A stretch of 64,000 nt of DNA from an uncultured Acidobacteriota bacterium (lineage in GTDB: Bacteria; Acidobacteriota; Thermoanaerobaculia; UBA5066; Gp7-AA6), in NCBI GenBank assembly GCA_963847075.1, contig CAWJYL010000002.1, positions 1,608,121-1,672,120 of the forward strand, read 5' to 3'. The translations under genes and the position numbers were made by a program. The notes below the pieces were generated by a model. The model worked only from the letters and a program-made list of their open reading frames with translations, did no database searches and was not told the origin of the DNA. Below, one piece after another: positions 3,056-50,445 of the stretch (position 1 is its first letter; each line of letters begins with the position of its first letter).

Positions 3056-3916
3056 ATGAGGAGCGAGACGATGAACGGCCTTCCCGAAGACGATCCCCTT
3101 TCCATCCCGAAGCTCGTGGCCTCCAAGGGGCGGGAGCGCATCTCGATGCTCACGGCCTACGACGCGCCGACGGCGGCGCTGCTCGACGCGGCGGGCGTGG
3201 ACGTGATCCTCATCGGAGATTCGCTCGAGATGGCGGTCTACGGCCAGCCGAACACGCTGACGGCGACGATGGACACGATGGTCCGGCACACGCGCGCCGT
3301 CTCGCGGGAGGTCAAGCGCGCGGTCGTCGTGGGAGACATGCCGTTTCTCTCCTATCAGGCCGAGCCCGCGCGCGCCGTCGAGAACGCCGGCCGATTCCTG
3401 GCCGAAGGCGGCGCGGCGGCAGTCAAGGTCGAGGGCGGGCGCCGGATCCTGCCGGCCGTCGAGGCGATCCTCGCCGCGGACATCCCTGTCATGGGGCACG
3501 TCGGGCTGACGCCACAGTCGTATCGCAAGTTCGGCGGGTTCAAGGTTCAGGGTCGGGAGGCCGAGTCCGCGCGGCAGATCCGCGACGATGCGCAGGCACT
3601 GGCGCAGGCAGGTTGCTTCGCGATCGTTCTCGAGTGCGTCCCCGATTCCCTGGCGGCGGAGATCACCCGGGAGATCGCCATTCCAACGATCGGCATCGGC
3701 GCGGGCCCGGCCTGCGACGGCCAGGTCCTCGTCTTCCACGACCTCGTGGGGCTAACGCGGAACCTGCGGCCGAAATTCGTCCGCCGTTACGCGGACCTCG
3801 CGCCCTTGATCGAAGAGGCCGCCCGCGCATTCACGCGCGACGTCAAGAGCGGCGAGTTCCCGTCGAAGGAAGAGTCCTTCTCGGGCGCGAAGCCGACCTT
3901 GCGGAGAGTGCACTGA
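3056..3916 (+). CDS. panB: 3-methyl-2-oxobutanoate hydroxymethyltransferase
   Basis: 286-aa ORF reading ISMLTAYDAPTAALLDAAGVDVILIGDSLEMAVYGQPNTLTATMDTMVRHTRAV...VVGDMPFLSYQ, canonical PanB. ATG 3071 is an alternative start. Confidence 0.9.
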   Translation: MRSETMNGLPEDDPLSIPKLVASKGRERISMLTAYDAPTAALLDAAGVDVILIGDSLEMAVYGQPNTLTATMDTMVRHTRAVSREVKRAVVVGDMPFLSYQAEPARAVENAGRFLAEGGAAAVKVEGGRRILPAVEAILAADIPVMGHVGLTPQSYRKFGGFKVQGREAESARQIRDDAQALAQAGCFAIVLECVPDSLAAEITREIAIPTIGIGAGPACDGQVLVFHDLVGLTRNLRPKFVRRYADLAPLIEEAARAFTRDVKSGEFPSKEESFSGAKPTLRRVH

Positions 3917-4848: not shown

Positions 4849-5670
4849 ATGGCCACCACTCCGACTCTCGACCCTCCCCGCGTAACGGGTTCCGCCGCCG
4901 CGGACCCCTTCGTCTTCGGCGGGCGGACGTTCCAGTCGCGCCTGATCGTCGGCACCGGCAAATACGCAAGTTTCCCGCTCATGAAACACGCGCTGGAAGA
5001 GTCGCAAGCCGAGATCGTCACGGTGGCGGTGCGGCGCGTGAACCTGACGGATCGCTCAAAAGAGTCGCTGCTCGATTTCATCCCGCGCGGCATGACGCTC
5101 CTGCCGAATACGGCCGGCTGCTACAACGCGGAGGACGCGGTGCGCGCGGCGCGCCTTGGCCGCGAAGTGGGTCTCTCCAACTGGGTGAAGCTCGAAGTTC
5201 TCGGCGACGAACAGACTCTCTGGCCGGACAACGAGGCGCTGCTCGCGGCGACGAAGACGCTCGTCAAAGACGGTTTCGTGGTCTTTCCCTACACCTCGGA
5301 CGATCCCATCGTGTGCCGCAGGCTCGAGGACGCGGGCGCAGCCGCGGTCATGCCCCTCGGCGCGCCGATCGGCTCGGGCCTCGGCATCCAGAACCAAAAC
5401 GCCATTGCGATCATCCTCGAGCGCGCGAAAGTTCCCGTGATCGTGGATGCGGGCGTGGGCACGGCTTCGGACGCGTGCGTGGCAATGGAGCTCGGCGCAG
5501 CCGGCGTCCTCATGAACACCGGGATCGCCGGCGCGAGGGATCCCGTGAAGATGGCCCGCGCCATGCGCGACGCGGTGCGCGCGGGACGCGACGCGCACCT
5601 GGCCGGCCGCATCCCCAGGAAGCGCTACGCCACGGCTTCTTCCCCGGTCCATGGCGTCATCGGCAGCTAG
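4849..5670 (+). CDS. thiG: thiazole synthase
   Basis: 273-aa ORF reading [10 protein letters not shown]...TVAVRRVN...[23 protein letters not shown]...VKLEVLGD...[14 protein letters not shown], canonical ThiG. Confidence 0.9.
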
Positions 5671-6040
5671 CTAAATAACTCCGCCAAAAGGCCTTGTTCC
5701 GATCACCGGCCTGAAGGACAGGCCCCGGGACGGCCGAACAGGGCCGCCCCTTCACATTCTTCTTGCAACCCTTACAACCCCCGTGCTACTTTCCGCCAGC
5801 TTTTACGAAAACCCCGCACATCCCTAACTGCCACCTTCTTATGTTTTTCCTTCCCCCATCCGTACGCCCCCGCGGGGAGGCGTTCGCGCATTCGAAAGGG
5901 GGTCGGTCCTAGAGCGAGAGCGTTGACCCGGCGTGCAACGCCGGGGTTTCCAAGAGTTGTGCATTCGTTTCGCCATATTTTTTGCCGGAGCGGACAACCG
6001 CCCGGCCCAGGGGATTAAACCCAGGAGATCTGTAAATTCC

Positions 6041-6340
6041 ATGATGCAGCAATACACGGACAAGAATCTCAATTGCGTCGACTGCGGCGGCACGTTCCTT
6101 TTCTCGGCCGACGATCAGGAGTTCTACGCCCGCAAGGGTTTCACCAACGAGCCCAAGAGGTGCAAGCCCTGCCGCGACAAGCGCAAGACGTCCTCGGGAG
6201 AGGGCCGCGAGCGCACCTTCTACGACGTCACCTGCGACGGCTGCGGCAAGCAGACGCAGGTTCCGTTCAACCCGACCAACGGCAAGCCGGTTTACTGCCG
6301 CGAGTGCTACTCGGCACGCCGCGCCCAGCAGTCCTACTGA
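6041..6340 (+). CDS. small zinc-ribbon protein (two CxxC...CxxC units)
   Basis: ATG 6041 is preceded by AGGAG (6023-6027). 99 aa with CVDCGGTF...CKPCRDKR and CDGCGKQTQVPF...VYCRECY. The upstream part of ORF 5933..6340 is not supported. Confidence 0.75.
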   Translation: MMQQYTDKNLNCVDCGGTFLFSADDQEFYARKGFTNEPKRCKPCRDKRKTSSGEGRERTFYDVTCDGCGKQTQVPFNPTNGKPVYCRECYSARRAQQSY

Positions 6341-6364
6341 GCCATCCGGTCCCGAGTCTCTCGT

Positions 6365-6392
6365 GCCCCGGCGTCCGCCGGGGCTTTTTTTT
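6365..6392 (+). terminator. intrinsic terminator after the zinc-ribbon gene
   Basis: GCCCCGGCG-TC-CGCCGGGGC followed by T8. Confidence 0.7.
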
Positions 6393-6419
6393 GTTATCGT
6401 CGAAAAGCGTGTCAGCGAA

Positions 6420-6600
6420 CTCTGTCATCCCGAGCGGCAGGCCATCCCCGGCGCATCGTCGTCCCGAGGAGCCCTTCGACTGCGCTCAGGGCAGGCTCCG
6501 CAACGAGGGATCCCTTTGAAGCCGCACCGTGACTCGAAAGGGATCCCTCGGGCTCACGCCCTCGGGATGACAGAGGACCGAGCAGCCCTTGGGATGACAG
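6420..6600. repeat. dispersed REP-like element related to the 9.6-10.5 kb array
   Basis: GTCATCCCGAGCG (6423-6435) faces CTCGGGATGACAG (6561-6573) and CTTGGGATGACAG (6588-6600). A perfect 13-bp inverted repeat GAGGGATCCCTTT...AAAGGGATCCCTC lies inside at ~6503-6549. Confidence 0.6.
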
Positions 6601-7538
6601 ATGAGACGGCCCCGGCCGCCGGCAATCTTCTCGACGCAATCGGCCGAACCCCGCTCCTCGAGCTCAAGCGCTTCGCCCGCGGCGCAGCGCGCGTCTTCGC
6701 GAAGCTCGAGTGGTTCAATCCGGGCGGAAGCGTCAAGGATCGGATCGCGCGCGCCATGATCGACGACGCCGAGGCCCGCGGTCTTCTCGCGGCCGGAGGC
6801 ACGATCGTCGAGGCGACTTCTGGCAATACGGGCGTGGCACTCGCGATGGTTGCCGTTGTCCGAGGATACAAATGCATCATCGTCATGCCGGAGGGCTACG
6901 GCCACGTGAAGGCAAGGCTCATGCGCGCGCTCGGAGCCGAGGTCATACGCACCGCCACCGACGCGATGATGTCGGGCGCCGTGGAGCGCGCGCAACAGAT
7001 CGCGCTTGAGACCCCCGGCGCCTACCTGCCCAACCAGTTTCACAATCCCGTCAACCCACGCGCACATTACGAAACGACCGGGCCCGAGATCGCCGAACAG
7101 CTCGGCGGGCCGATCGACGCATGGGTCGCCGGCGTGGGAACGACCGGAACGTTCACGGGTGTGGCGCGATACTTGTCCGAGTCGAACCCGCGTCTCCTGC
7201 GTGTCGCGGTCGAGCCGCAGGGCTCGATTCTGGGCGGCGGCGTTCCGGGCCCCCACGAGGTCGAGGGCATCGGCCTGTCGCAGATCTGGCCGATCCTCGA
7301 CCGTGCGCTCATCGACGAGGTCATCGAGATCCGCGACAAGGAGACCTTCGAGACCTGCCGCGTGCTGGCGCGCGAAGAGGGACTCGCCGTCGGCGGATCC
7401 TCGGGAGCGGCCGCGGCCGCCGCGCTGCGCGTCGCCGAACGGCTCGGACCCGGCAAGACCGTCGTCACGCTCTTCCCGGACGGCGCCGAGCGCTATCCGG
7501 ACCAGGGGATCTTCGCGGCCTCGCGGCCGAAAGGATGA
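6594..7538 (+). CDS. cysteine synthase / cystathionine beta-synthase family PLP enzyme
   Basis: Reads TPLLELKR...KLEWFNPGGSVKDRIA...TIVEATSGNTGVALA...GVGTTGTFTGV...GGSSGAA, the CysK/CysM/CBS fold. ATG 6594 gives 314 aa; ATG 6567 is an alternative. Both ATGs lie inside GGGATGACAG repeat arms. Confidence 0.85.
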   Translation: MTDETAPAAGNLLDAIGRTPLLELKRFARGAARVFAKLEWFNPGGSVKDRIARAMIDDAEARGLLAAGGTIVEATSGNTGVALAMVAVVRGYKCIIVMPEGYGHVKARLMRALGAEVIRTATDAMMSGAVERAQQIALETPGAYLPNQFHNPVNPRAHYETTGPEIAEQLGGPIDAWVAGVGTTGTFTGVARYLSESNPRLLRVAVEPQGSILGGGVPGPHEVEGIGLSQIWPILDRALIDEVIEIRDKETFETCRVLAREEGLAVGGSSGAAAAAALRVAERLGPGKTVVTLFPDGAERYPDQGIFAASRPKG

Positions 7539-12248: not shown

Positions 12249-12337
12249 TTCCATGCCGGGAGGGCTCTCCGTGTCAAGCTTCCCGAGGCGAGTGTTAGAA
12301 TCCCTGTTCGATCTTTGAGCTTCGCGCGACTTGCCGT

Positions 12338-12698
12338 GGGGGCGAAACGGCTTCGACGGGGACGATTGCGCGAGAGGTTGCATGCCGAGGTCTCACCCCT
12401 CCTCGTTAAAGCAGGGTGAAAAATAGTAGCTGCGAACAACAGCAACTTCGCTCTGGCTGCTTAATTAAGTAGCCGCGTTTGCCGGATAGCGCACCCGCCG
12501 CGCTTCGGCCGACGTCGCGAAATGCGGGTGTAGCGGCTCCGGACCCCCGGACGGAGCAGCGAAATCCATTCGGGGTTGCCCTGACGCCGTTTTGCCTCTT
12601 CTCGAGGCGGCGGGGCGAGAACCAAGAAGAGGCTGAGCATGGAGTGGCCTCTCCCGCAGCGCTTCCGGACGCGGGTTCAACTCCCGCCGCCTCCACCA
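12338..12698 (+). ncRNA. ssrA: transfer-messenger RNA (tmRNA, SsrA)
   Basis: The 5' end is GGGGGCGAAACGGCTTCGACGGGG. The 3' end is GGACGCGGGTTCAACTCCCGCCGCCTCCACCA. The acceptor stem GGGGGCG/CGCCUCC contains the G3:U wobble. The internal tag reading frame 12429-12464 (GCT GCG AAC AAC AGC AAC TTC GCT CTG GCT GCT TAA) encodes AANNSNFALAA. Confidence 0.93.
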
Positions 12699-12719
12699 TT
12701 TCATGTTTCCCCAAGTTAA

Positions 12720-12743
12720 GGGCCGGATCGTCCGGCCCTTTTT
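12720..12743 (+). terminator. intrinsic terminator after ssrA
   Basis: GGGCCGGA-TCG-TCCGGCCC followed by T5. Confidence 0.7.
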
Positions 12744-13012
12744 CTCGTGCGGTCCGCTCAACGCCGTTTACCGCTTTGTTCCCGCCGTTCGACTCGGACA
12801 CAGGACGCGGGCACGTGGTTCCAACTCGTTGACCTGTTGTGAACTTCCTGGAGGTTAGAGTCCTACGCGGCTCACCACTCACTCCGGTTGTCGCTGGCAG
12901 CTGATCTCTGCAATTAGGAACATCGCGTCAGGCTGGAATCGGCCGCTTGCGCGCGCGTGACGGAGGCGCAAACTCGTTGACAGGGGGGGCTTCCCTGCGG
13001 AGAATTGCGATT

Positions 13013-13107
13013 GGCGATGGAGTTCGCCTAAACCGCCCGATCGCGCTACGCGAGAAGGCTGATAACTCCTGCACCGGAGGGCACCATGCACGGCGCAGGA
13101 GTTTTTC
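13013..13107 (+). promoter_or_regulatory. fluoride riboswitch (crcB motif) with terminator expression platform
   Basis: Reads GGCGAUGGAGUUCGCCUAAACCGCCCGAUCGCGCUACGCGAGAAGGCUGAUAACUCCUGC. P1 is GGCGA/UCGCC. The loop GGAGUU is complementary to AACUCC (pseudoknot), and the conserved UAAACCGCC...GGCUGAUAA core is present. The terminator ACUCCUGCACCG...CGGCGCAGGAGU plus U5 (13065-13107) shares the AACUCC strand. Confidence 0.8.
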
Positions 13108-13152
13108 TTATGCCCGGCGGTCGCGAAGGCCGGTCACAACCCGAGGTGGCCC

Positions 13153-14368
13153 GTGACTGAAACGTGGTTCCTCGCGGCGATCTGGGTTGGTCTCGCGCTG
13201 GTCGCTGTCCTGATCGCCATCAAGCTCCGAATCTCGACGGCGCTCTCGGAGATCGTCGTCGGAACAGTGGCCCAGCTCGTGATCGGGGCCACTATCGGGA
13301 CGGCCTTCCTCGGAGCAAAGCAGCCCTGGATCACGTTTCTCGCCGGCGCAGGGTCGATTGTCTTGACCTTCCTGGCGGGTGCCGAGCTCGATCCGTCGTT
13401 TTCCGGAAGCGCTGGAAGGAAGCGACCGGAATCGGGCTCATTGGGTTCGTTGCGCCGTTCCTCGGTTGTTCTGCCATCGCGCATTACATGCTCCACTGGC
13501 CAGCGCGGCCGTCCTGGCTCGCCGGTGTGGCGCTTTCGACGACGTCGGTCGCCGTGGTCTATGCCGTCATGCTCGAGCTGGGTCTCAACACGACACCTTT
13601 TGGGAAGGCGATCCTGGCTGCTTGCTTCGTCAACGACCTGGGAACGGTGATCGCGCTGGGTCTGATCTTTGCGCCGTTCACAGTCCGTACCGCAGTCTTC
13701 GTTGGGGTTTCGGTCATCGTTTTTGCCGTCTTGCCATGGTTGACTCCACGTTTCTTCAAGCGCTACGGCGGCCGGGTCTCGGAGCTCGAGGCGAAGTACC
13801 TGCTGCTGCTCTTATTTGGAATGGGAGGCCTTGCCACCTGGTCGGGCAGCGAGGCCGTCCTCCCGGCCTACGTGATCGGCGTGGTGCTGGCGGGTACGGT
13901 GGGAAAGGATCATGTATTGATCCGGCGGCTTCGCACCCTGACTTTCGGGCTCCTCACTCCTTTCTACTTCATCCGCGCCGAATCCTGCGTCTCGGTGCCG
14001 GCGCTGGTGGCGGCGCCGTTCGCCTTCCTCGTCCTTTTCGGAGCCAAATCCGTGAGCAAGTTTGTCGGGGTCTTCCCTGTGGCGAAGCTCTTCCGATATG
14101 GCAAGCAAGAGGCGATCTACACGACGCTTCTGATGTCGACGGGCCTGACGTTCGGCACGATCTCGGCGCTCTTCGGCCTCTCGCATGGCATCATCGATCA
14201 AGCGCAGTACTCTTATCTGGTGGCAGCCGTGATCGCGAGCGCGGTCATTCCGACCGTCATCGCGAATGCGTTTTTCCTTTCCGCGTCACCACCTCCCCAC
14301 GACGATTTCGGAGCCGGAAAGCGGAGGCCGTGGCGGTCGTTAGCCGGCTCGAAGGAGGCAAGGCATGA
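13153..14368 (+). pseudogene. cation:proton antiporter (CPA family), frameshifted
   Basis: Frame A (13153 to ~13398) reads MTETWFLAAIWVGLALVAVLIAIKL...LTFLAGAELDP. The protein continues only in another frame (VFRKRWKEATGIGLIGFVAPFLG... to ...VIPTVIANAFF). It probably shifts to a third frame near the T5 run, ending at TGA 14366-14368, which overlaps the next ATG as ATGA. Confidence 0.75.
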
Positions 14369-14781
14369 AGACGATTCTCGTCGCATTCGACGGGTCCGAG
14401 CAGTCCCGCAAGGCGTTCGAACTCGGGCGGGATATTGCGTCGAAGTTCCGAGCCAAGCTGGTCGTTGTCAGTGTGATTCAGCTTCCCGAACCGGCAATCT
14501 CCGTAGAGATCGACGCCTTGCTCGACGCCGGCAAGACGCAGTTCGCGGAGGAATTCGCGCACCTGGAGACGGCGGCTGCTGGAGCAGGGGCTCGCGTTCG
14601 AGTCGAAAGTGGTCGTCGGCCACCCCGCGGAGCCAACGTTCGTCACGCCGAGGATCTTCACGCGGATCTGATTGTCATGGGCCGTCGAGGTCAAAGACAC
14701 AGGTAACGCGCTGGATCCTGGGCTCGGTGTCTGAACGAGTGTTCGCGTTATGCGCACTGTCCCGTAACGGTCGTGAAGTAG
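14365..14781 (+). pseudogene. universal stress protein (UspA family), multiple frameshifts
   Basis: MKTILVAFDGSEQSRKAFELGRDIASKFRAKLVVVSVIQ is intact. The remaining conserved pieces QGLAFESKVVVGHPAE, RHAEDLHADLIVMGRRG, RWILGSVSERVF and YAHCPVTVVK-stop lie in three different frames. Confidence 0.7.
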
Positions 14782-15058
14782 CCGATGGTCCCGCGAATCT
14801 CTGTGCGCCGACAGAACCGGTTCGGGTTTGCCTGTTGCGATCGAACGCCTCCGCGGCCGCCAGTATCGGTGCCTGCGATGCAATACCGTCTTTTATGAGC
14901 TCGACGAGCTCGACCATGACCTCAGTCGCGAGGGGCCGGGCCCTGACGCCGAGGACGTCCCGCGCTTTGACGAGCCGATGCTCCTGCGATTCTTCTACTC
15001 CGAGGACGTCCGGGAAGGCTGGGGGGAGCGCAGAAGCGTAGTAGAGAGGCACGCCGCC

Positions 15059-17169
<2,111 letters not shown>

Positions 17170-23096: not shown

Positions 23097-23178
23097 AGTT
23101 CAGTGTAACGATATCACTCGAAGCGAGATTTCCGATCGGACACCGGACTCAATGTGTCTCCAACTCGCGGCCGGGCAA

Positions 23179-23240
23179 TACGGACAACGACACGGACAAA
23201 CCGGAGGAGTAGCTCGAAAACATTCAGGAATTCGTTCATC
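23179..23240 (+). repeat. ssrA-associated att-like element, copy A (arm only)
   Basis: Reads ACGGACAACGACACGGACAAACCGGAGGAGTAGCTCGAAAACATTCAGGAATTCG, which matches the arm of copies B, C, D and F. The ssrA-identical 3' block is absent or unrecognisable. Confidence 0.7.
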
Positions 23241-23271
23241 GAGGTTGGGGCCAGGTTTCCTCTCCTTCGGC

Positions 23272-23631
23272 TCAGTAGAAAATGTACCTTACGCGGACCC
23301 GCAGCTTCGACCCTTCGGGGATCGCTTCGACGCTTATCTGCTGCACGTCCCCCCCGACTTGCCGCACCAACAGGATGCGTCCTGAAGGTTGGGGCCGAGC
23401 CGTGAAGGCTGGAAGCTGCTCACGGATCCACCTCTCGTAGTTCTCCCGACTCATCGCCGTTACGAACTCCCATCGAAAGGAGCTGTGCGCAAGGTCCCCC
23501 GCGTCAACAGACTCCGCGTCGGGAGGCACCGTCGAGCGCCGAACCTCCTCGGTTGTAGTCCCTTGATACTCCGCCTTCGTGCCCCTGGATCGCCAGAACA
23601 ACAGGCCGATCGAGGCGACAATGGCAGTCAA
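23272..23631 (-). CDS. hypothetical membrane-anchored protein
   Basis: 119-aa ORF with an N-terminal TM segment (IVASIGLLFW). Upstream (23632-23860), TM-like coding signal continues in other frames, so this may be the tail of a larger broken gene. Confidence 0.35.
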   Translation of the reverse strand: MTAIVASIGLLFWRSRGTKAEYQGTTTEEVRRSTVPPDAESVDAGDLAHSSFRWEFVTAMSRENYERWIREQLPAFTARPQPSGRILLVRQVGGDVQQISVEAIPEGSKLRVRVRYIFY

Positions 23632-23895: not shown

Positions 23896-24393
23896 CTACT
23901 TCTTGCCGATCGACTTTGTCATCTCTTCGAGCCTCAGCCGGTCAAGTGATGCGATCGGAAGCGAGGTGAACAACCCGAGACGCCGATAGATTTCGACGGC
24001 GACCTTCTTGATCACTGCCCGTTTCTCTTCTTCGGTGCCCTGGACGGCGTCCGGATCCTGCGAGCCCCAATGGGCAACGATTGGCTGACCGGGCCAGACG
24101 GGGCACGACTCCCGCGCGTTGTCGCAGACGGTGATCACGAAGTCGAACTTGATGTCGCGGTACTCGTTCCACGACTTGCTTCGCGCCGCGCTCGCGTCGA
24201 TGTGGTAGCCGTCACTGAGAAGTTCGAGGACGTAGGGGTTAACTCGACCCCTCGGATCGGCCCCCGCGCTGAACGTCTCGAAGTGAACCGGGTCCAGACG
24301 CCGAAGAAAGTACTCCGCGAGAATGCTGCGGGCGGAATTTCCTGTACAGAGGAAGAGGATCTTGAACTTCTTCGGCTGCAAGAGGTCCGTCAT
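23896..24393 (-). CDS. arsC: arsenate reductase, LMW-PTPase (thioredoxin-coupled) type
   Basis: Intact 165 aa reading KILFLCTGNSARSILAEYF...ETFSAGADP...DFVITVCDNARESCPVWPG. Confidence 0.85.
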   Translation of the reverse strand: MTDLLQPKKFKILFLCTGNSARSILAEYFLRRLDPVHFETFSAGADPRGRVNPYVLELLSDGYHIDASAARSKSWNEYRDIKFDFVITVCDNARESCPVWPGQPIVAHWGSQDPDAVQGTEEEKRAVIKKVAVEIYRRLGLFTSLPIASLDRLRLEEMTKSIGKK

Positions 24394-24484
24394 GACGCCT
24401 CCTCGGCCGCGCCGAAGGCTAGCGCGGGAAACCTGTGACGGGTTGAAAGGCAGACGGAGCAGACCGGCAGAGTCACGGGCGCTC

Positions 24485-24901
24485 TTACCTCGCGCAGCAG
24501 GTCTGCGGCTCGCATGCCGTATCGGCCTCGATGTCCTCGATCACGCTGTAGACTTCCAACCGGTTTCCGTCGGGATCGCTGAGCCAAAACTTATCCTGGA
24601 GCGCGTAGCAGCAGGACTCACGCTTCTCCTCCTCGGTCACGACTCCCCGTCCGTCGAGGGTTCTTTTCCACCGGAGAACCTCATCGGAGGAGCCGACCCG
24701 AATGCCGAGATGCGAGAGGGCTCCCGAACCGTCTCCACGCCGGAGGCCGGGCTGCAGGGCGAGATGGATCTCGGGCTCTGTGCTCACGAACTTCGCGTAG
24801 TCCGATTTGAGCTTCTTCGGCTCACCGAAGAATCGCCGATAGAACGCCACTGACTCTGAGAGGCTGGAAACGTTGAGTGAAAGATGAAACGCAGATGGCA
24901 T
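24485..24901 (-). CDS. ArsI/CadI-family VOC (glyoxalase-fold) metalloenzyme
   Basis: Intact 138 aa reading FHLSLNVSSLSESVAFYRRFFG...HLGIRV..., with a vicinal Cys pair in ESCCYALQDKFW and a Cys-rich C-terminus. Confidence 0.75.
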   Translation of the reverse strand: MPSAFHLSLNVSSLSESVAFYRRFFGEPKKLKSDYAKFVSTEPEIHLALQPGLRRGDGSGALSHLGIRVGSSDEVLRWKRTLDGRGVVTEEEKRESCCYALQDKFWLSDPDGNRLEVYSVIEDIEADTACEPQTCCAR

Positions 24902-24957
24902 TTGCCGGCCTCCTATTCGATTATTCGCAAACTATCGATACGTCAGGGCAATTTTTT

Positions 24958-25265
24958 TAGACCGCCTTCGCGATCGCATCTGCGAGGCCCGCGATCCCCG
25001 CTTCGTTCCGGGAGTAGTACATCCACCGACCCCGCTTTTCGGCGTTCACGAGCCCCGCTCGACGGAGAAGGCCCATGTATGGGACACGGCCGCCTGTGAC
25101 AGTTCGACCGCCTCCTCGATGTCGCATGCACAGAGACCCGGCTCATTTCGCGAAATCAGCTCGCAGCACGAGCGACCCCTCGATTTGAGAAGGTCGAGAA
25201 TGCGCGAGCCGCGTCGGGTCGCCGAGAGCCTTGAAGGTCAATACCAAGTCAGCGCCGGGTTTCAT
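24958..25265 (-). pseudogene. arsR: ArsR/SmtB-family repressor, two frameshifts
   Basis: MKPGADLVLTFKALGDPTRL is followed in other frames by ILDLLKSRGRSCCELISRNEPGLCACDIEEAVELSQAAVSH and then MGLLRRAGLVNAEKRGRWMYYSRNEAGIAGLADAIAKAV-stop. Confidence 0.7.
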
Positions 25266-25299
25266 TGATCGAAAAGCATAGAAGTGTCGACTGCCCCTG

Positions 25300-25719
25300 T
25301 CAAGCCTTCGGAAGATCGAGTAGGAGAGGGGCCAACCGACTGCCGAATCTGGTCACGCACGTCGCGGAATTGCGCCATGCGCTCGTCGTCGGATCCCGCG
25401 CGGCGCGGCCGGGTCCGGCAGCGGCCAATGGAGGCGGTGGGCCTTGCCGAGAAAGACCGGGCACACCTCGTCCGCGCAAAGGGTCACGACGAGGTCCACC
25501 GTGTTGGGATCGATGGCATCAACGGATTTCGAGCGTTGCAGGGAGATGTCGATCCCGAGCTCGGCGAGGGCCCTGACCGCGAACGGGTTCACGGCCTTGG
25601 GCTGCGAGCCCGCACTCTTGTACTGAGATTCGACCGCCAAACGCCGCACGCGCAAGACCCTCGGCCATCTGGCTACGGGCGGAGTTCGCGACGCAGAGGA
25701 AAAGGACACCCTTCGTCAT
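25300..25719 (-). pseudogene. second LMW-PTPase-type arsenate reductase, at least three frameshifts
   Basis: The pieces [113 protein letters not shown] and LLLDLPKA-stop lie in different frames. ATG 25719 overlaps the upstream stop as ATGA. Confidence 0.7.
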
Positions 25720-25967
25720 CCGAGCCCCAGCAGCTTGCGGACTTCTTCCGCCTTCGGAACGCGCCCCGACAACACTACAATCCCATTCACGACGACGCCG
25801 GGCGTCGCCAGGAGTCCAAGCTCGACCATTCGTTCTATCGAATCGTCCTTCGTCACTTGGAAGGGCGCACCCGCATGTGTCACCACCTGCTGCACAACGC
25901 GGTACGTCTCCTTGCACCGGGTGCAGCCAGGCCCGAGGATTTCGATCTTGCGCATGCTGTCTGGCAT
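25716..25967 (-). CDS. thioredoxin-fold redox-active disulfide protein (ars-associated)
   Basis: Reads [29 protein letters not shown]...[24 protein letters not shown], 83 aa. ATG 25967 follows GGAGG. The upstream part of ORF 25716..26450 belongs to the broken permease. Confidence 0.8.
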
Positions 25968-26002
25968 GAGTGCCTCCGGGTGGTCAGTCATTCGGATTGG
26001 GA

Positions 26003-27105
26003 TCAGAGGATGGCGTTGAAGAGGTAGCCGACGAGAAGGATTCCCGTCGCGACGACGGCGAAGAACACGGCGATGAGCCGGCGCTTCAGGACCTTTCGAA
26101 GAAGGATCGCCTCGGGAAGCGAAAGCCCGATCACGGCCATCATGAACGCAAGCACCGTCCCGAGCGCCACTCCCTTCGCGAGGAGCACCTGGACGAGCGG
26201 TACGACACCGGCCGCGTTCGAGTAGAGCGGAACGCCGATGAGAACGGCGAGCGGCACGGCGAACGACGAGGACCGGCCATGAACGACGCCAGGAAGTCGG
26301 TCGGGACGTAGCCGTGCATGAGGGCGCCGACCGCGATGCCGACGACGAGGTAGGGCCAGACCTTCCCGACGAATCGCGTACCGATGTGGCCGCCTCGCCG
26401 AGGCGCTCCGCCCAGGTCGGTGCGCGGCCCGGCAGTTCGCGACCTCGCACGCGCCGACTGGTAGACCTACTCTTCTACGGAGCCTCCAGGTCGAGCCGCC
26501 CGATGACGGCTCCGGCGATCGTGGCGACCGCGAGGCCGGTCGACCAGATATAAGCAGGCGATCTTCCAGCCAAAGAGCCCCAGAGCAGGACGAGCGCGAC
26601 CTCGTTGACCATGGGCGCTGCGACGAGAAACGAAAACGTGACGCCCAGCGGCACGCCCGCTTCGACGAAGCCGATGAAGAGCGGCACCGCCGAGCACGAG
26701 CAGAACGGCGTCACGACGCCGAGCGCGGCCGCGAGCGGGTAGCCGGCCGCCTACACGCCTGCCAGCGAGGAGCCGGCGCGTCCTTTCGGGCGTGACGAAG
26801 GTGTGGATGATCCCGACCGCGAAGACGACGGCGACGAGAAGGAGGAACACCTTCGGGACGTCGTAGGTGAAGAACTCGACCGCCTCCGACAGGTGGCCCG
26901 TCGGCGGCAACCCGACAGGCCCGTGCGTGATCCAGCCGGCGGCCGTCGGGAGGATCGCGTAGAGGAGCAGCCAGGCGAGACCTGCGGCAGCGACGAGGGC
27001 GACACGGCGCGGCAGAGATGCCGGGGGCACCGCGGGCGGGGTGAAAACCGGCAGCGACAACCTGATGGAGGGGCGTTCGCGACGCGCCTGGATCTGTGCA
27101 GTCAT
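26003..27105 (-). pseudogene. DUF318/ArsP-like permease, at least three frameshifts
   Basis: The N-terminus (ORF 26467..27105 up to ...FVTPERTRRLLAG), the middle (ORF 26475..26714, TPFCSCSAVPLFIGFVEAGVPLGVTFSFLVAAPMVNE) and the C-terminus (ORF 26003..26257, PLYSNAAGVVPLVQVLLAKGVALGTVLAFMMA...) sit in different frames. Confidence 0.7.
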
Positions 27106-27151
27106 ACGACTTCCATGGTGTTCTGGCGGGAAAGCCTGTTCGGGTTAGCTG

Positions 27152-27573
27152 TCATGGACGGCTCGAGGAAGCGGCGGCGTCCCGGACCGGGAACCGGATT
27201 CCAAGGCGTGAAAGATCGAGGTCGACGCGACAGAGCTCTTCGAGGGGCACCTTGCGCAGCTCTTTCAGCAGCGTTCGGTCCTGCGCGACCATTCGGTCCT
27301 TTTCGAGGTCTCCCCAGGGCACGAGTGCCAGGGCTGCGTCCAGAGCATCGTCCGCAAGCCGGTACTCCACCCACTTCCCGTCCTTGCGCTCTATGACGAG
27401 ATCGCAGCGGCGCAGATCCGAGAGGTGGGCCGACACGGTGGAGGCGGCGAGCTGCAAGACCGCCGTCATCTGGCATACACAGAGCGGACCTCGTCGCAGC
27501 ATCGCGAGGATGCGCAGCCGTACCGGGTGAGCCAGGGCCTTGTGAATTCGAACGAGCTCGGGAAGCTTGGGCA
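27152..27573 (-). CDS. ArsR-family transcriptional regulator
   Basis: Reads MPKLPELVRIHKALAHPVRLRILAMLRRGPLCVCQMTAVLQLAASTVSAHLSDLRRCDLVIERKDGKWVEYRL. Intact, 140 aa from ATG 27573. Confidence 0.8.
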
Positions 27574-27644
27574 TTATTTCGTCGTCCCAGGAGGCACGAA
27601 GCCTTGCGGCACCGTCGCGAGGGCCGGTGGAGACGTTTGAGCGG

Positions 27645-28807
27645 TCAAAGCTGAGCCTCGAGGCCATCAGCCTCGACCTTGCCGCCATAGAACCTGCGAA
27701 GGAAGTACAGGCTGACGTGGACCAGGCCTATCAGCGCCGGCACTTCCACGAGGGGACCGATGACCGTGGCGAAGGCGACGTCGGAAGTGATGCCGAAGAC
27801 GGCGATGGCAACCGCAATCGCCAGCTCGAAGTTGTTACCCGAGGCCGTGAAGGCCAGGGTGGCGCTGCGACTGTAATCGCCCCCGAGTTTCCGAGCCATG
27901 AAGAAGCTGATCAGGAACATCAGCGCGAAGTAGATCAAGTCAGCGGTATGGCGATCCAGCAGCACGTTCATCGGAAACTGCACGATCGTTGTCGCCCTTG
28001 AAGCGTGAACATGATCATGATCGTGAAGAGCAGGGCGATCAGAGTGAGCGGCGAGATGCGCGGGATGAATTTCTTCTCGTACCACTCGCGGCCCTTAAGC
28101 CGGCACGCAGGATGAAGCGGCTGAGCATGCCCGCGGCGAAGGGGATGCCCAGGTAGATCATCACACTGCGAAAAATCTCGCCGATGGTGATGCCTGGACG
28201 ACCGCCCGCGCCCTGGAGACGCAGGCCGATGCCAGCGGCCGGCAGCACGGTCACGAACACCCACGCGTAAAAGTCTGTAGAAGAGGACTGGAAGACGCTG
28301 TTGAACGCGACCAGGCCGGCGGCATATTCGCTGTTGCCCCTCGCGAGCGTCATTCCAGACGAGCACCATCGCGATACAGCGGGCGATGCCGACCAGGATC
28401 AATCCGACCATTACTCCGGGTGGTCGTGCAGGAAGAGCGCCGCGAGGCACGAACATCAGGAGCGGCCCGATGATCCAGTTCTGCACCAGCGAAAGCCCGA
28501 GGATCTTCCAGTCGCGGAAGACCTGGCCCATCTCCTCGTACTTCACCTTCGCCAGCGGCGGATACATCATGAGGATCAGACCGATCGGCAATCGGGATGT
28601 TGGTCGTCCCGACGTCGAAGCGACTGATGAACGCCTTCGAGGCCGGCAAGATAACCGATGCCCACGCCCAGAACCATGGCGAGCGAAGATCCAGACCGTC
28701 AGGTACCGGTCGAGCAGCGAAAGTCTCCTGGCGACTTCCTCCCCGATCGGACCCTCCTTCCGCCCGTACTCGGGCCCTGTTGGCGGGGACGAGTTCGGTT
28801 TCATCAT
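27645..28807 (-). pseudogene. acr3: ACR3-family arsenite efflux transporter, at least five frameshifts
   Basis: The ACR3 segments LSLLDRYLTVWIF, FISRFDVGTTNIPIA, IGLILMMYPPLAKVKYEEMG...[51 protein letters not shown]...[36 protein letters not shown] and [19 protein letters not shown]...[13 protein letters not shown] alternate between the three minus frames. Confidence 0.8.
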
Positions 28808-28897
28808 TTCGTCACGCCACGAAATATAGATGGGAATGAGCGCCGTCGTCAAGATGCAATCGACCTATAGGTCTTCCCCTTCCAACGTCGTCGTTAT

Positions 28898-29005
28898 GCG
28901 GACGAGCAACGCGGACAAAAACACGGACAAACCGGGGGAGCAGGTCGAAATCATTCAGGAATTAGCAAGAATTCCCTGGGTTCAACTCCCGCCGCCTCCA
29001 CCATT
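28898..29005 (+). repeat. ssrA-associated att-like element, copy B (arm + ssrA 3' block)
   Basis: The arm is GCGGACGAGCAACGCGGACAAAAACACGGACAAACCGGGGGAGCAGGTCGAAATCATTCAGGAATTAGCAAGAATTCC. It is followed by GGGTTCAACTCCCGCCGCCTCCACCATT (28978-29005), 28/28 identical to ssrA 12673-12700. Confidence 0.85.
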
Positions 29006-31960: not shown

Positions 31961-32057
31961 CTATTCAAACCATCATTAGAATATTTGGCAGACAGTCGCT
32001 TGTCAAGCAAGGGGCAGGTGCCACCGATCAAGCCGTCACGGTCCCGCGGACCTGCAA

Positions 32058-32156
32058 CGCTGACAACAACACGGACAAACCGGGGGCGCAGCTCGAAATC
32101 ATTGAGGAATTCGGAGGAATCCGATGGGTTCAACTCCCGCCGCCTCCACCATTTCA
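32058..32156 (+). repeat. ssrA-associated att-like element, copy C
   Basis: The arm is CGCTGACAACAACACGGACAAACCGGGGGCGCAGCTCGAAATCATTGAGGAATTCGGAGGAATCC. The block 32126-32156 is identical to ssrA 12673-12703 (31 nt). Confidence 0.85.
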
Positions 32157-32414: not shown

Positions 32415-32696
32415 ATGCGCACGCGGTTCATGTCGCATGTAGTCGCTGCAGTGCTTCTTGGAATCGTGCTTGGCGTCGTCACGGCCAGGTCGCGGTCGAC
32501 CGATCGCGCGAAGGGGAGGGAGGCGTATCTCGCTGAGCAAGCCAGGCATTTCGACAAGAACGTCGCGAAGCCCAGGAGCGTATTCACGTGCGTCGCTGGC
32601 GTCGGATTCTCAGGGTTTGTCTTTGGTGTGTATGAGCTCTTGGCACTAGGTATCTACGGCGTAATTCGCCCCAGGGAGAACGCCGGTGCGGCCTAA
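32415..32696 (+). CDS. small hypothetical membrane protein
   Basis: 93-aa ORF with two hydrophobic segments. Its stop TAA lies inside the GCCTAAC arm of the following hairpin repeat. Confidence 0.4.
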   Translation: MRTRFMSHVVAAVLLGIVLGVVTARSRSTDRAKGREAYLAEQARHFDKNVAKPRSVFTCVAGVGFSGFVFGVYELLALGIYGVIRPRENAGAA

Positions 32697-32766
32697 CACG
32701 CGCGTGCAGCGGACTCGTTCGTCAGCTTCGCCTCCTCACTCGCCGCTGACGCGCAGTCCGTTAGGC
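32691..32766. repeat. GCCTAAC...GTTAGGC hairpin repeat, copy 1
   Basis: 76 nt. Terminal inverted GCCTAAC/GTTAGGC, and internal GCGCGTGCAGCGG pairing with CCGCTGACGCGC. Confidence 0.7.
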
Positions 32767-33122: not shown

Positions 33123-33387
33123 GGCGCTTCCGAAGTTCGAATCCGAAGAGCAAGAGCGGAAATTCTGGGCGGAGCACGACTCGGCCGACTTTGTCGACTG
33201 GTCTTCTGCTCAGCGCAGGTCGTTCCCTGCCCTGCGCCCGACGCTACGCACGATTTCGCTGAGGCTGCCCGAATCGATGATTGGCCACCTCAAAGTACTG
33301 GCGAACAAGCGCGATATCCCGTATCAGTCGCTGCTCAAGCAGTTCCTCGCTGAACGGCTCGAGCGCGAGTTATCACGGGGCGCCTAA
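33103..33387 (+). CDS. brnA: BrnA-family antitoxin
   Basis: Reads LPKFESEEQERKFWAEHDSADFVDW...ISLRLPESMIGHLKVLANKRDIPYQSLLKQFLAERLE. It overlaps brnT by 20 nt. Its stop lies in the GCCTAAC arm of hairpin copy 2. Confidence 0.85.
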   Translation: MSKAKRKALPKFESEEQERKFWAEHDSADFVDWSSAQRRSFPALRPTLRTISLRLPESMIGHLKVLANKRDIPYQSLLKQFLAERLERELSRGA

Positions 33388-33457
33388 CACGCGCGTGCAG
33401 CGGAGTCGTTCGTCGCCTTCGGCTCCTCACTCGCCGCTGACGCGCCGCCCGTTAGGC
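33382..33457. repeat. GCCTAAC...GTTAGGC hairpin repeat, copy 2
   Basis: GCCTAACACGCGCGTGCAGCGGAGTCGTTCGTCGCCTTCGGCTCCTCACTCGCCGCTGACGCGCCGCCCGTTAGGC, near-identical to copy 1. Confidence 0.7.
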
Positions 33458-33582: not shown

Positions 33583-33662
33583 GGTTAACCCAGCCGCGCG
33601 TGCGGCGGACTCGCTCATCGCTTTCGGCTCGTCACGAGCCGCTGATCCGCCGACCGTTAGGC
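33583..33662. repeat. GCCTAAC...GTTAGGC hairpin repeat, copy 3 (diverged)
   Basis: GGTTAACCCAGCCGCGCGTGCGGCGGACTCGCTCATCGCTTTCGGCTCGTCACGAGCCGCTGATCCGCCGACCGTTAGGCC. Same architecture with substitutions. Confidence 0.6.
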
Positions 33663-36018: not shown

Positions 36019-36254
36019 CGGACTCACGGCTCTCGTTTCCATACCGGCCGGAAAGGCTGCGGCTCTGGTGGTCCTTGCCGTTAGGCCGCCTCATGTGTTC
36101 TTCGTAGAGCCTCAGTCGGCGCCGGCAGTCGTCACTCGCGGTCTTGGGAGTGGTGGCTGTCTTCTCGTCGAATATCTCCAGAATCACAACGGATCGACCC
36201 GGTAGACGATTCGCCGGCCATGGTCACGATGTGGCAAGGGAGTAACAGGACGCT

Positions 36255-36277
36255 GCCTAACACGCGCGTGCAGCGGA
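36255..36277. repeat. truncated GCCTAAC hairpin repeat (copy 4) abutting att copy D
   Basis: GCCTAACACGCGCGTGCAGCGGA, the left arm only. It runs directly into the CGGACAA arm repeats. Confidence 0.55.
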
Positions 36278-36278
36278 C

Positions 36279-36336
36279 GCGGACAACGACACGGACAAAC
36301 CATGGGTTCAACTCCCGCCGCCTCCACCATTTCATG
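36279..36336 (+). repeat. ssrA-associated att-like element, copy D (internally deleted arm)
   Basis: GCGGACAACGACACGGACAAACC is joined directly to CAT plus block 36304-36336, identical to ssrA 12673-12705 (33 nt). The next ~20 nt (CCTACCCAGGTTAGGGG) still resemble the ssrA downstream flank (TTTCCCCAAGTTAAGGG). Confidence 0.85.
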
Positions 36337-50175: not shown

Positions 50176-50242
50176 GAACATGTCATTCGTTCGCGATCTG
50201 AGAGTTGCAGCTCACTCGTTGATTCGGACCCCAGGGCTGGCG

Positions 50243-50323
50243 ACGGACAGATCGGGGGAGTAACTCGAACACAATCGGGAATTCGTTAGAACTCCGTGGA
50301 TTCAACTCCGGCCGCCTCCACCA
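50243..50323 (+). repeat. ssrA-associated att-like element, copy E (diverged)
   Basis: GACGGACAGATCGGGGGAGTAACTCGAACACAATCGGGAATTCGTTAGAACTCC is followed by GTGGATTCAACTCCGGCCGCCTCCACCA. That is 24 of 26 nt identical to the ssrA 3' end. Confidence 0.75.
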
Positions 50324-50445
50324 AGTTAGGTTCATCACAATCGTGTCGAGTCGCGCCCCCGTCGTTCGTCGTAACTCTGTAAAGAGACCACATTGGTGCA
50401 GGGCATCCTGCTTCTACGAACCATCGCAAGACTTAAGGAGGAATC

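Follow-up and report, generated by a model that had tools for sequence, protein, structure and literature searches.

A predicted fluoride riboswitch ahead of an antiporter and universal stress protein operon in an uncultured Acidobacteriota bacterium

The window analysed here is a stretch of 64,000 nucleotides (nt) from the genome of an uncultured Acidobacteriota bacterium (contig CAWJYL010000002.1), and at 13004-13078 of its plus strand it carries what its sequence identifies as a canonical fluoride riboswitch with canonical cargo, adding to a known class. It is highly probable that this RNA is a transcriptional ON switch that stands before a translationally coupled operon encoding a cation:proton antiporter, a universal stress protein (USP) and a small protein, with the roles proposed for them below. 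A first-pass annotation made from the letters of the DNA had placed a fluoride aptamer, a competing terminator and an antiporter-USP operon here, and the 60-nt string that it quoted for 13013-13072 is found exactly as given.

The fluoride aptamer

The whole window was scanned against Rfam 15 at curated thresholds and returned three matches, a tmRNA and two fluoride aptamers. The match at 13004-13078 reaches 48.7 bits with the fluoride model RF01734, for which the gathering score is 34 bits, with E = 1.9e-10 over the whole window and both strands, and it covers the full model (1-64 of 64). Between 12700 and 13300 no non-fluoride Rfam family is matched even at E<=1 with permissive filters; a different riboswitch class was therefore rejected, RF01734 being the sole Rfam family in this interval. 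The fluoride class proposed in the first-pass annotation has thus passed the check set for it, that of a score below threshold or a better match to another class. The parts of the aptamer are as follows.

13013-13072, plus strand: fluoride aptamer (Rfam match 13004-13078, 48.7 bits; covariation)
13013-13016/13025-13028, plus strand: P1, 4 bp (covariation)
13019-13024/13064-13069, plus strand: pseudoknot GGAGUU/AACUCC (covariation)
13035-13037/13057-13059, plus strand: P3, 3 bp plus extension (covariation)
13041-13045/13049-13053, plus strand: extra 5-bp hairpin in P3, from an 18-nt insertion

The Rfam model expects about 4 nt in P3, whereas the window aptamer has its 18-nt insertion there. In the RF01734 alignment the conserved unpaired core (GAUGG..., AACCGCC and GGCUGAUNA) matches all upper-case consensus letters but one, and this single mismatch, a G to A change in GAUGA, is a compensated pseudoknot position. 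P1 had been annotated as GGCGA/UCGCC; the helix is present but is composed of four base pairs and not five, as U13024 belongs to the pseudoknot, where it pairs with A13064 in a pair that covaries, and A13017-U13024 is not conserved as a fifth P1 pair in the aptamer alignments.

Support for the fold comes from two alignments. The first, made with Rfam's model, comprises 17 aptamers, two from the window and 15 from upstream of homologous antiporter genes; 96% of its cells are paired, two-sided changes occur in 9 of 14 pairs, none of 500 shuffles matches its pairing and covariation, and shifting the pair partners by 1-3 columns abolishes the signal. The second search model was built on P1 and P3 alone with the pseudoknot left out, and yielded 107 aptamers in 81 sources. 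Over the two alignments the pairing of P1, P3 and the pseudoknot reaches 96-97%, 9-10 pairs show two-sided changes and no shuffle attains these values; the pseudoknot, although absent from the search model, is 99.7% paired in the 107 aptamers with two-sided changes in four of its six pairs, which bears out the loop pairing GGAGUU/AACUCC that had been read from the letters. The sixth pseudoknot pair is U-A in the aptamer at 13004-13078 and C-G in the partner aptamer at 23102-23033, the compensatory change that the first-pass annotation had anticipated; across the family this pair is UG, CG or UA, with U-G or C-G commoner than U-A.

The fluoride riboswitch or crcB motif (RF01734; Weinberg 2010, PMC2864571; Baker 2012, as cited in PMC11139923) has the same P1, P3, pseudoknot and core as the window RNA, the same ON logic of an overlapping terminator and the same kind of cargo. 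The window aptamer shows nothing outside the known variation of the RF01734 family.

Promoter, terminator and proposed switching

The signals around the aptamer were compared with those of the closest relative, a Thermoanaerobaculia metagenome-assembled genome (locus L001), and of further related loci.

12977-13005, plus strand: sigma-70-like promoter, TTGACA-17 nt-GAGAAT (promoter scan, 10 of 12 matches)
13064-13109, plus strand: predicted intrinsic terminator, the expression platform (folding)
13143-13155, plus strand: Shine-Dalgarno-like GAGGUGG and GTG start of the antiporter gene (from the sequence; the intact homologue in L001 has its ATG at the aligned position)

The promoter is the only match of the promoter scan in 12300-15500, and the predicted transcript start at ~13011-13013 coincides with the opening base of P1; at the corresponding place L001 reads TTGACC-17-GAATAT (judged by eye). 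The terminator stem, AACUCCUGC.ACC.../...GGC.GCAGGAGUU, is followed by UUUUUCUU, and its 12-bp hairpin at 13064-13103 has a folding energy of -21 kcal/mol (z = -2.5 relative to shuffles). The annotated terminator is borne out by this fold, but the U tract that UUUUUCUU supplies holds 5 T's in total (13102-13106) and not GGAGU plus five more. Because AACUCC (13064-13069), which is the pseudoknot's 3' strand, also serves as the 5' arm of the terminator hairpin, closure of the aptamer and formation of the terminator are mutually exclusive. The competition for AACUCC suggested at first pass therefore stands, and of 69 related leaders 58 hold an equivalent competing hairpin (at least 7 bp, same strand). 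In L001, L002 and L005, the closest relatives, the terminator is built alike, with a U-rich tract after the hairpin; U4 or more follows the competing hairpin in only ~10 of the 58 leaders. Terriglobia-type leaders (L003-L057 and others; about 3690-3750 per locus) carry a strong sequestering hairpin and no U tract (~48 of 58), and these may employ U-less terminators, Rho or another read-out. The antiporter GTG at 13153 lies 45 nt downstream of the terminator, counted from 13107, at the distance first noted, and its start region is paired in a hairpin at 13131-13159 of the minimum-energy fold.

It is proposed that transcription would start at ~13012 from the sigma-70-type promoter. When fluoride is absent AACUCC (13064-13069) would be captured by the terminator hairpin at 13064-13103 and RNA polymerase would halt in the UUUUUCUU tract. 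Fluoride bound as a Mg2+-F- cluster would let AACUCC pair with GGAGUU (13019-13024) and close the pseudoknot, so that no terminator would form and polymerase would read through into the translationally coupled operon for the antiporter, the USP and the 87-aa protein. In the original description of the crcB motif, overlapping terminators were likewise read as an ON switch with ligand-induced read-through (PMC2864571). Both the binding of fluoride and the direction of regulation in vivo are predictions from sequence.

The antiporter, the USP and a third small gene

13153-14368, plus strand: cation:proton antiporter gene, Na_H_Exchanger family, 404 aa frame-corrected (PF00999, tblastn and DNA alignment to L001)
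14365-14781, plus strand: USP gene, 137 aa frame-corrected (PF00582 and corrected translation)
14785-~15060 (end uncertain), plus strand: third small open reading frame (ORF), with its ATG 4 nt past the USP stop (tblastn against L001 and L002)

The longest in-frame piece of the antiporter matches PF00999 at 102 bits (gathering score 26.2), and all 120 listed homologues carry this family; the closest, P0001 from L001, is a 404-aa protein that is 92% identical. With NCBIfam TIGR00932 (CPA2) the intact homologue P0001 reaches 106 bits and stays below the cut-off of 238, therefore the protein is placed in a divergent clade for which 'cation:proton antiporter' is the best name. Glutathione-gated K+ efflux of the KefB/KefC type is not supported, as P0001 scores 25 and 23 bits with the two equivalogs against cut-offs of 752 and 804, and as the protein has 404 aa against ~600-620 aa and shows no C-terminal KTN/RCK domain. 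The name 'KefC', which JGI gives to many of the homologues, is therefore unsupported.

The only solved structure that is detectable by sequence is NapA of Thermus thermophilus, a CPA2 Na+/H+ antiporter (PDB 4bwz, 5bz2, 5bz3), with E = 4e-7 over residues 34-364, which marks a very distant relation. The two proteins are of similar length (~390-400 aa), neither has a cytoplasmic regulatory domain, and the window antiporter clade retains the lysine that aligns with the one in transmembrane segment 10 of NapA. Where NapA has paired aspartates (DD), however, the clade has N161-D162. An ND motif is a hallmark of electroneutral CPA1 exchangers. The antiporter would export protons against Na+ or K+ and so counter the acidification caused by entry of hydrogen fluoride (HF), and the USP would be its regulatory partner; the ions transported and this role of the USP are both putative.

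The USP matches PF00582 at 71 bits (threshold 24) and its corrected translation holds a G-x2-G-x9-G-S motif, GRRGQTQVTRWILGS; G-x2-G-x9-G(S/T) in a USP we take to be a nucleotide-binding motif. The TGA of the antiporter gene at 14366-14368 overlaps the ATG of the USP gene at 14365 (ATGA), and the USP gene ends with a TAG at 14781. Both family assignments and the overlap had been made correctly in the first-pass annotation, but neither gene is one open frame, as is discussed below.

The small ORF encodes 87 aa in L001, with a C-x2-C (CLRC) motif and an acidic C-terminal half, and matches no Pfam family. By tblastn it is 100% identical to its counterpart in L001 and 76% identical over 86 aa to that in L002, at the same place after the USP gene (L001 5388-5651; L002 5398-5655). 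It follows the USP gene directly in the window and these two closest relatives and not in the other 78 loci surveyed. In the window it is frameshifted at ~14824, where a relative's contig has one base fewer. A 625-aa ORF at 13164-15041 (plus strand), which runs through the antiporter and USP genes and beyond, was rejected as a spurious composite across frames in high-GC DNA, although simple ORF calling would return it as the gene. The small ORF, the seven frameshifting indels and the array of ssrA-end repeats described below all go beyond what had been noted at first pass.

Conservation of the linkage and comparison with known cargo

A scan of 185,579 species genomes for homologues yielded 80 loci with antiporters that are 69-100% identical. 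By their record labels these loci belong to at least 8 phyla and include Acidobacteriota, Planctomycetota, Nitrospirota, Methylomirabilota, Desulfobacterota, Myxococcota, Pseudomonadota, Sumerlaeota and FCPU426. A same-strand fluoride aptamer lies directly upstream of the antiporter gene in 69 of the 79 assessable loci, at 32-216 nt from the start codon (median 64), and 0.55-3.2 kb upstream in seven more, which makes 76 of 79 riboswitch-linked; at the remaining three no same-strand upstream fluoride aptamer is present. Rfam's own model detects the aptamer at 15 of 16 loci sampled across phyla. The USP gene is directly downstream of the antiporter gene in 65 of 78 loci, and crcB occurs within the 8.8-kb locus in 42. 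Two or more aptamers are present at 25 of the 76 loci with any match, with three inside 8.8 kb at L002, L020, L029 and L060, and some form back-to-back divergent pairs (e.g. L002 3434-3508, minus strand, and 3608-3672, plus strand).

Na+/H+ antiporters are the next most common cargo of fluoride riboswitches after exporters, and their role is interpreted as one of offsetting the acidification of the cytoplasm by HF, which reviews describe only by inference (PMC11139923). The role of USPs in the fluoride response is 'not well established' (PMC11777429). In Enterobacter cloacae FRM uspA belongs to a riboswitch-controlled operon that fluoride induces 120-fold (PMC5533749). These sources and the 80-locus survey agree with the statement in the first-pass annotation that antiporters and USPs are recurrent cargo. 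Like the window, E. cloacae FRM has a fluoride riboswitch that drives an operon with a USP, has enolase and crcB nearby and carries its operon on a horizontally acquired island (PMC5533749). The FRM operon differs in that its induction and its contribution to resistance were shown by experiment and its USP occurs with a pyrophosphatase, whereas the window USP has a cation:proton antiporter as its coupled partner and the genes are divided over two convergent operons, each headed by a riboswitch.

Frameshifts and alternative explanations

Base-level alignment to L001 places three frameshifting indels in the antiporter gene, four in the USP gene and at least one in the small ORF; the seven in the first two genes fall within 1.63 kb.

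~13393, antiporter: one base missing (CC against CCC in L001 and relatives)
~14278, antiporter: one extra base
~14318, antiporter: one extra base
~14580, USP: +1
~14634, USP: -1
14693-14694, USP: +2
14747, USP: +1

P0001 aligns to the window by tblastn in three different frames. After correction the antiporter (404 aa) and USP (137 aa) frames have no stops and equal those of L001 in length. At all seven sites the window differs from L001 and from Illumina contigs of 90-95% relatives (three sediment metagenomes), which read through at every one, and four or five of the sites lie within or beside short homopolymers. A relative-rate count against 19 outgroup sequences gives 9-10 window-specific amino-acid changes, mostly conservative, against five on the L001 branch, so that neutral substitutions show no burst. 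Because the corrected frames are full-length and without stops, assembly error is preferred to decay as the explanation; the seven indels are probably such errors, and the organism itself would then carry an intact operon. Only 5-8% of the window's 31-mers occur in the best public runs, which points to relatives and not to source reads; the exact aptamer 40-mer has no match in metagenome contigs and no database record was found for three window proteins. A hidden-Markov frame tracer based on GC content at third codon positions proved rough, called the frameshift-dense 14279-16504 'non-coding' and was not used for the counts.

Several points weigh against the proposed ON switch and its operon. 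As the DNA is written neither protein would be made, since the start-codon frames end at 13650 (antiporter) and 14706 (USP) and no intact frame is found in the antiporter, the USP or the small ORF as sequenced. The indels are also unevenly distributed: all broken genes found, nine by one count, lie at 13.1-28.9 kb, and frameshifts there affect the antiporter, USP, small ORF, enolase, DUF190, both dynamin-like genes, ACR3, a permease and an ArsC; this clustering could reflect real decay of two resistance islands or, alternatively, a patch of poor consensus. The enolase gene that adjoins the USP gene, split over at least four ORF pieces in the window, is broken in the Illumina-based L001 too, and this enolase copy may be truly decaying in the lineage of both. 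Measurements of ion specificity for the antiporter clade were not found in the papers searched. In L001 the paralogue of enolase, convergent with the USP gene (5667-6795, minus strand), is split over three frames, and the antiporter, USP and a 635-aa dynamin-like gene are intact. Elsewhere in the window all 11 ORFs tested read through, those at 29-64 kb among them, as do MFS, PP2C and CrcB within the module. A uniformly error-prone assembly was rejected, as unbroken frames with complete sets of domains are present for PhoD (687 aa), cardiolipin synthase (487 aa), MFS (408 aa), an extracytoplasmic function sigma factor (421 aa) and a sigma-54 activator (597 aa).

That the RNA resembles the fluoride motif by chance and has no function is practically inconceivable: nothing was found in its favour, and it is refuted by an E-value of 1.9e-10 over 64 kb and both strands and by the retention of the aptamer, with compensatory changes, at a conserved position before the orthologues in 69 of 79 loci. 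A genuine riboswitch that acts on translation or via Rho, and not via an intrinsic terminator, would agree with the related leaders, mainly from Terriglobia, most of which have the competing hairpin without a U tract (U4 or more in ~10 of 58), and with the pairing of the GTG start region in hairpin 13131-13159. Such a mechanism is nevertheless improbable for the window, which shares with L001, L002 and L005 a U-rich tract after the hairpin, and whose Shine-Dalgarno site lies 40 nt past the switching sequence, outside the alternative pairing.

The riboswitch could also be genuine and the operon dead, with the antiporter, USP, small ORF and enolase as pseudogenes in a decaying, acquired fluoride/arsenic island and the aptamer as an intact relic. 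The seven indels in 1.63 kb, the further ones in the small ORF, enolase, DUF190, dynamin-like and arsenic genes and the intactness of long genes elsewhere in the window speak for this, as do the broken enolase of the Illumina assembly L001 and the lack of a recognisable integrase in the island ORFs tested, as in old islands. It is nonetheless judged unlikely. Correction leaves no in-frame stops and no change of length, there is no excess of amino-acid replacement on the window branch, and four or five of the seven sites are in or near short homopolymers; three to four independent indels per gene with hardly any substitutions are the signature of base-calling or polishing error and not of neutral decay. 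On this contig automated gene calling will return fragments or pseudogenes across 13-29 kb.

The partner riboswitch and the ssrA setting

The riboswitch and its operon lie between a tmRNA gene and a second riboswitch-headed unit.

23102-23033, minus strand: partner fluoride aptamer (Rfam 41.8 bits)
~23.05 to 15.0 kb, minus strand: partner operon crcB-DUF190-dynamin-like (two)-MFS-PP2C-enolase (Pfam on ORFs)
12338-12698, plus strand: tmRNA gene, ssrA (RF00023 179.6 bits; ARAGORN)

The convergent two-operon layout, described at first pass as a fluoride island, is real and common to the window and L001, with antiporter-USP-small ORF on the plus strand and crcB-DUF190-two dynamin-like GTPases-MFS-PP2C-enolase on the minus strand. 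The partner operon is unusually long, and no mention of dynamin-like GTPases and PP2C as cargo was found in the fluoride reviews consulted.

The ssrA gene lies immediately upstream of the fluoride module as context and not as a member of the operon; it encodes the tag peptide AANNSNFALAA and has its own terminator at 12718-12740 (terminator scan). The last 26 nt of ssrA (12673-12698) recur as exact plus-strand copies at 28978-29003, 32126-32151 and 36304-36329, and with two mismatches at 50298-50323 (plus strand), where none would be expected by chance. Elements of ~108 nt contain or precede these repeats at 28898-29005, 32046-32153 and 50218-50325, with a further one at 36277-36329. Each copy of the ssrA end follows a shared arm of ~80 nt with two ACNCGGACAA direct repeats, after which a piece of ~45 nt begins with GGGGGCG, as does the 5' acceptor strand of the tmRNA. 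A degenerate, arm-only copy without the tmRNA core is located at 23167-23274, just outside the second riboswitch. The copy at 32081-32151 has a 71-nt cloverleaf-like fold that ends in ACCA, and the other copies fold differently; a tRNA-like RNA gene at this place is not supported (z = -1.2, the other copies differ and ARAGORN calls none). The ~108-nt element may be an integrase arm site or a tRNA-like relic.

In Dehalococcoides genomic islands occur in tandem at ssrA (PMC3146451), and there as in the window direct repeats of the ssrA 3' end bound successive accessory blocks downstream of an intact gene. The window differs in that the end repeat of its fluoride block (23167-23274) is arm-only and that no integrase domain was found in the 10 island ORFs tested, a scan that was not exhaustive and did not include frameshifted remnants. 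By this analogy the pattern is one of islands stacked at ssrA, which supports the term 'fluoride island' and agrees with the conservation of the cassette across phyla. The stack apparently comprises four or five accessory blocks: fluoride, arsenic, redoxin/ArsR-rhodanese, PhoD and one of 14 kb that holds PLD-like genes, a lipase and a sigma-54 activator. The arsenic-resistance cluster (23896-28852, minus strand) was identified by eye from translations and has several frameshifted genes; it encodes ArsR (27152-27688), an arsenite carrier of the ACR3 type, a permease in two parts, a small protein with a thioredoxin fold and two ArsC proteins, of which that at 23896-24393 is intact and of the low-molecular-weight phosphatase type. 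A stretch that is otherwise non-coding holds three copies (32691-32766, 33382-33457, 33587-33662) of an internally palindromic repeat of 76 nt (GCCTAACACGCGCGTGCAGCGGA...GCCGCTGACGCGC..CCGTTAGGC); it resembles repetitive extragenic palindromic (REP) elements or miniature inverted-repeat transposable elements (MITEs), and a related 45-nt piece lies at 36237-36281.

Significance

A bolder proposal, which we regard as doubtful, is that the antiporter-USP pair is a dedicated, horizontally mobile fluoride-defence device and not a generic gene for pH homeostasis and, separately, that the ~108-nt repeats contain a tRNA-like relic derived from the acceptor and T arms of the tmRNA and are not just integrase arm sites. 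The device is suggested by the identity of ~70-94% across at least 8 phyla, the riboswitch linkage in 76 of 79 loci, ND in place of the DD of NapA and the coupling to a USP of the ATP-binding type. If it were real, its job might be, for example, a USP-gated cation flux that serves as counter-charge or proton sink for Fluc-mediated fluoride export.

For annotation, the riboswitch call and its regulon are correct and the JGI label 'KefC' should not be copied. The survey sharpens an older observation: one highly conserved antiporter clade is tied almost obligately to a fluoride aptamer and a USP partner, and this clade is the obvious candidate for testing what the second most common cargo of fluoride riboswitches does.

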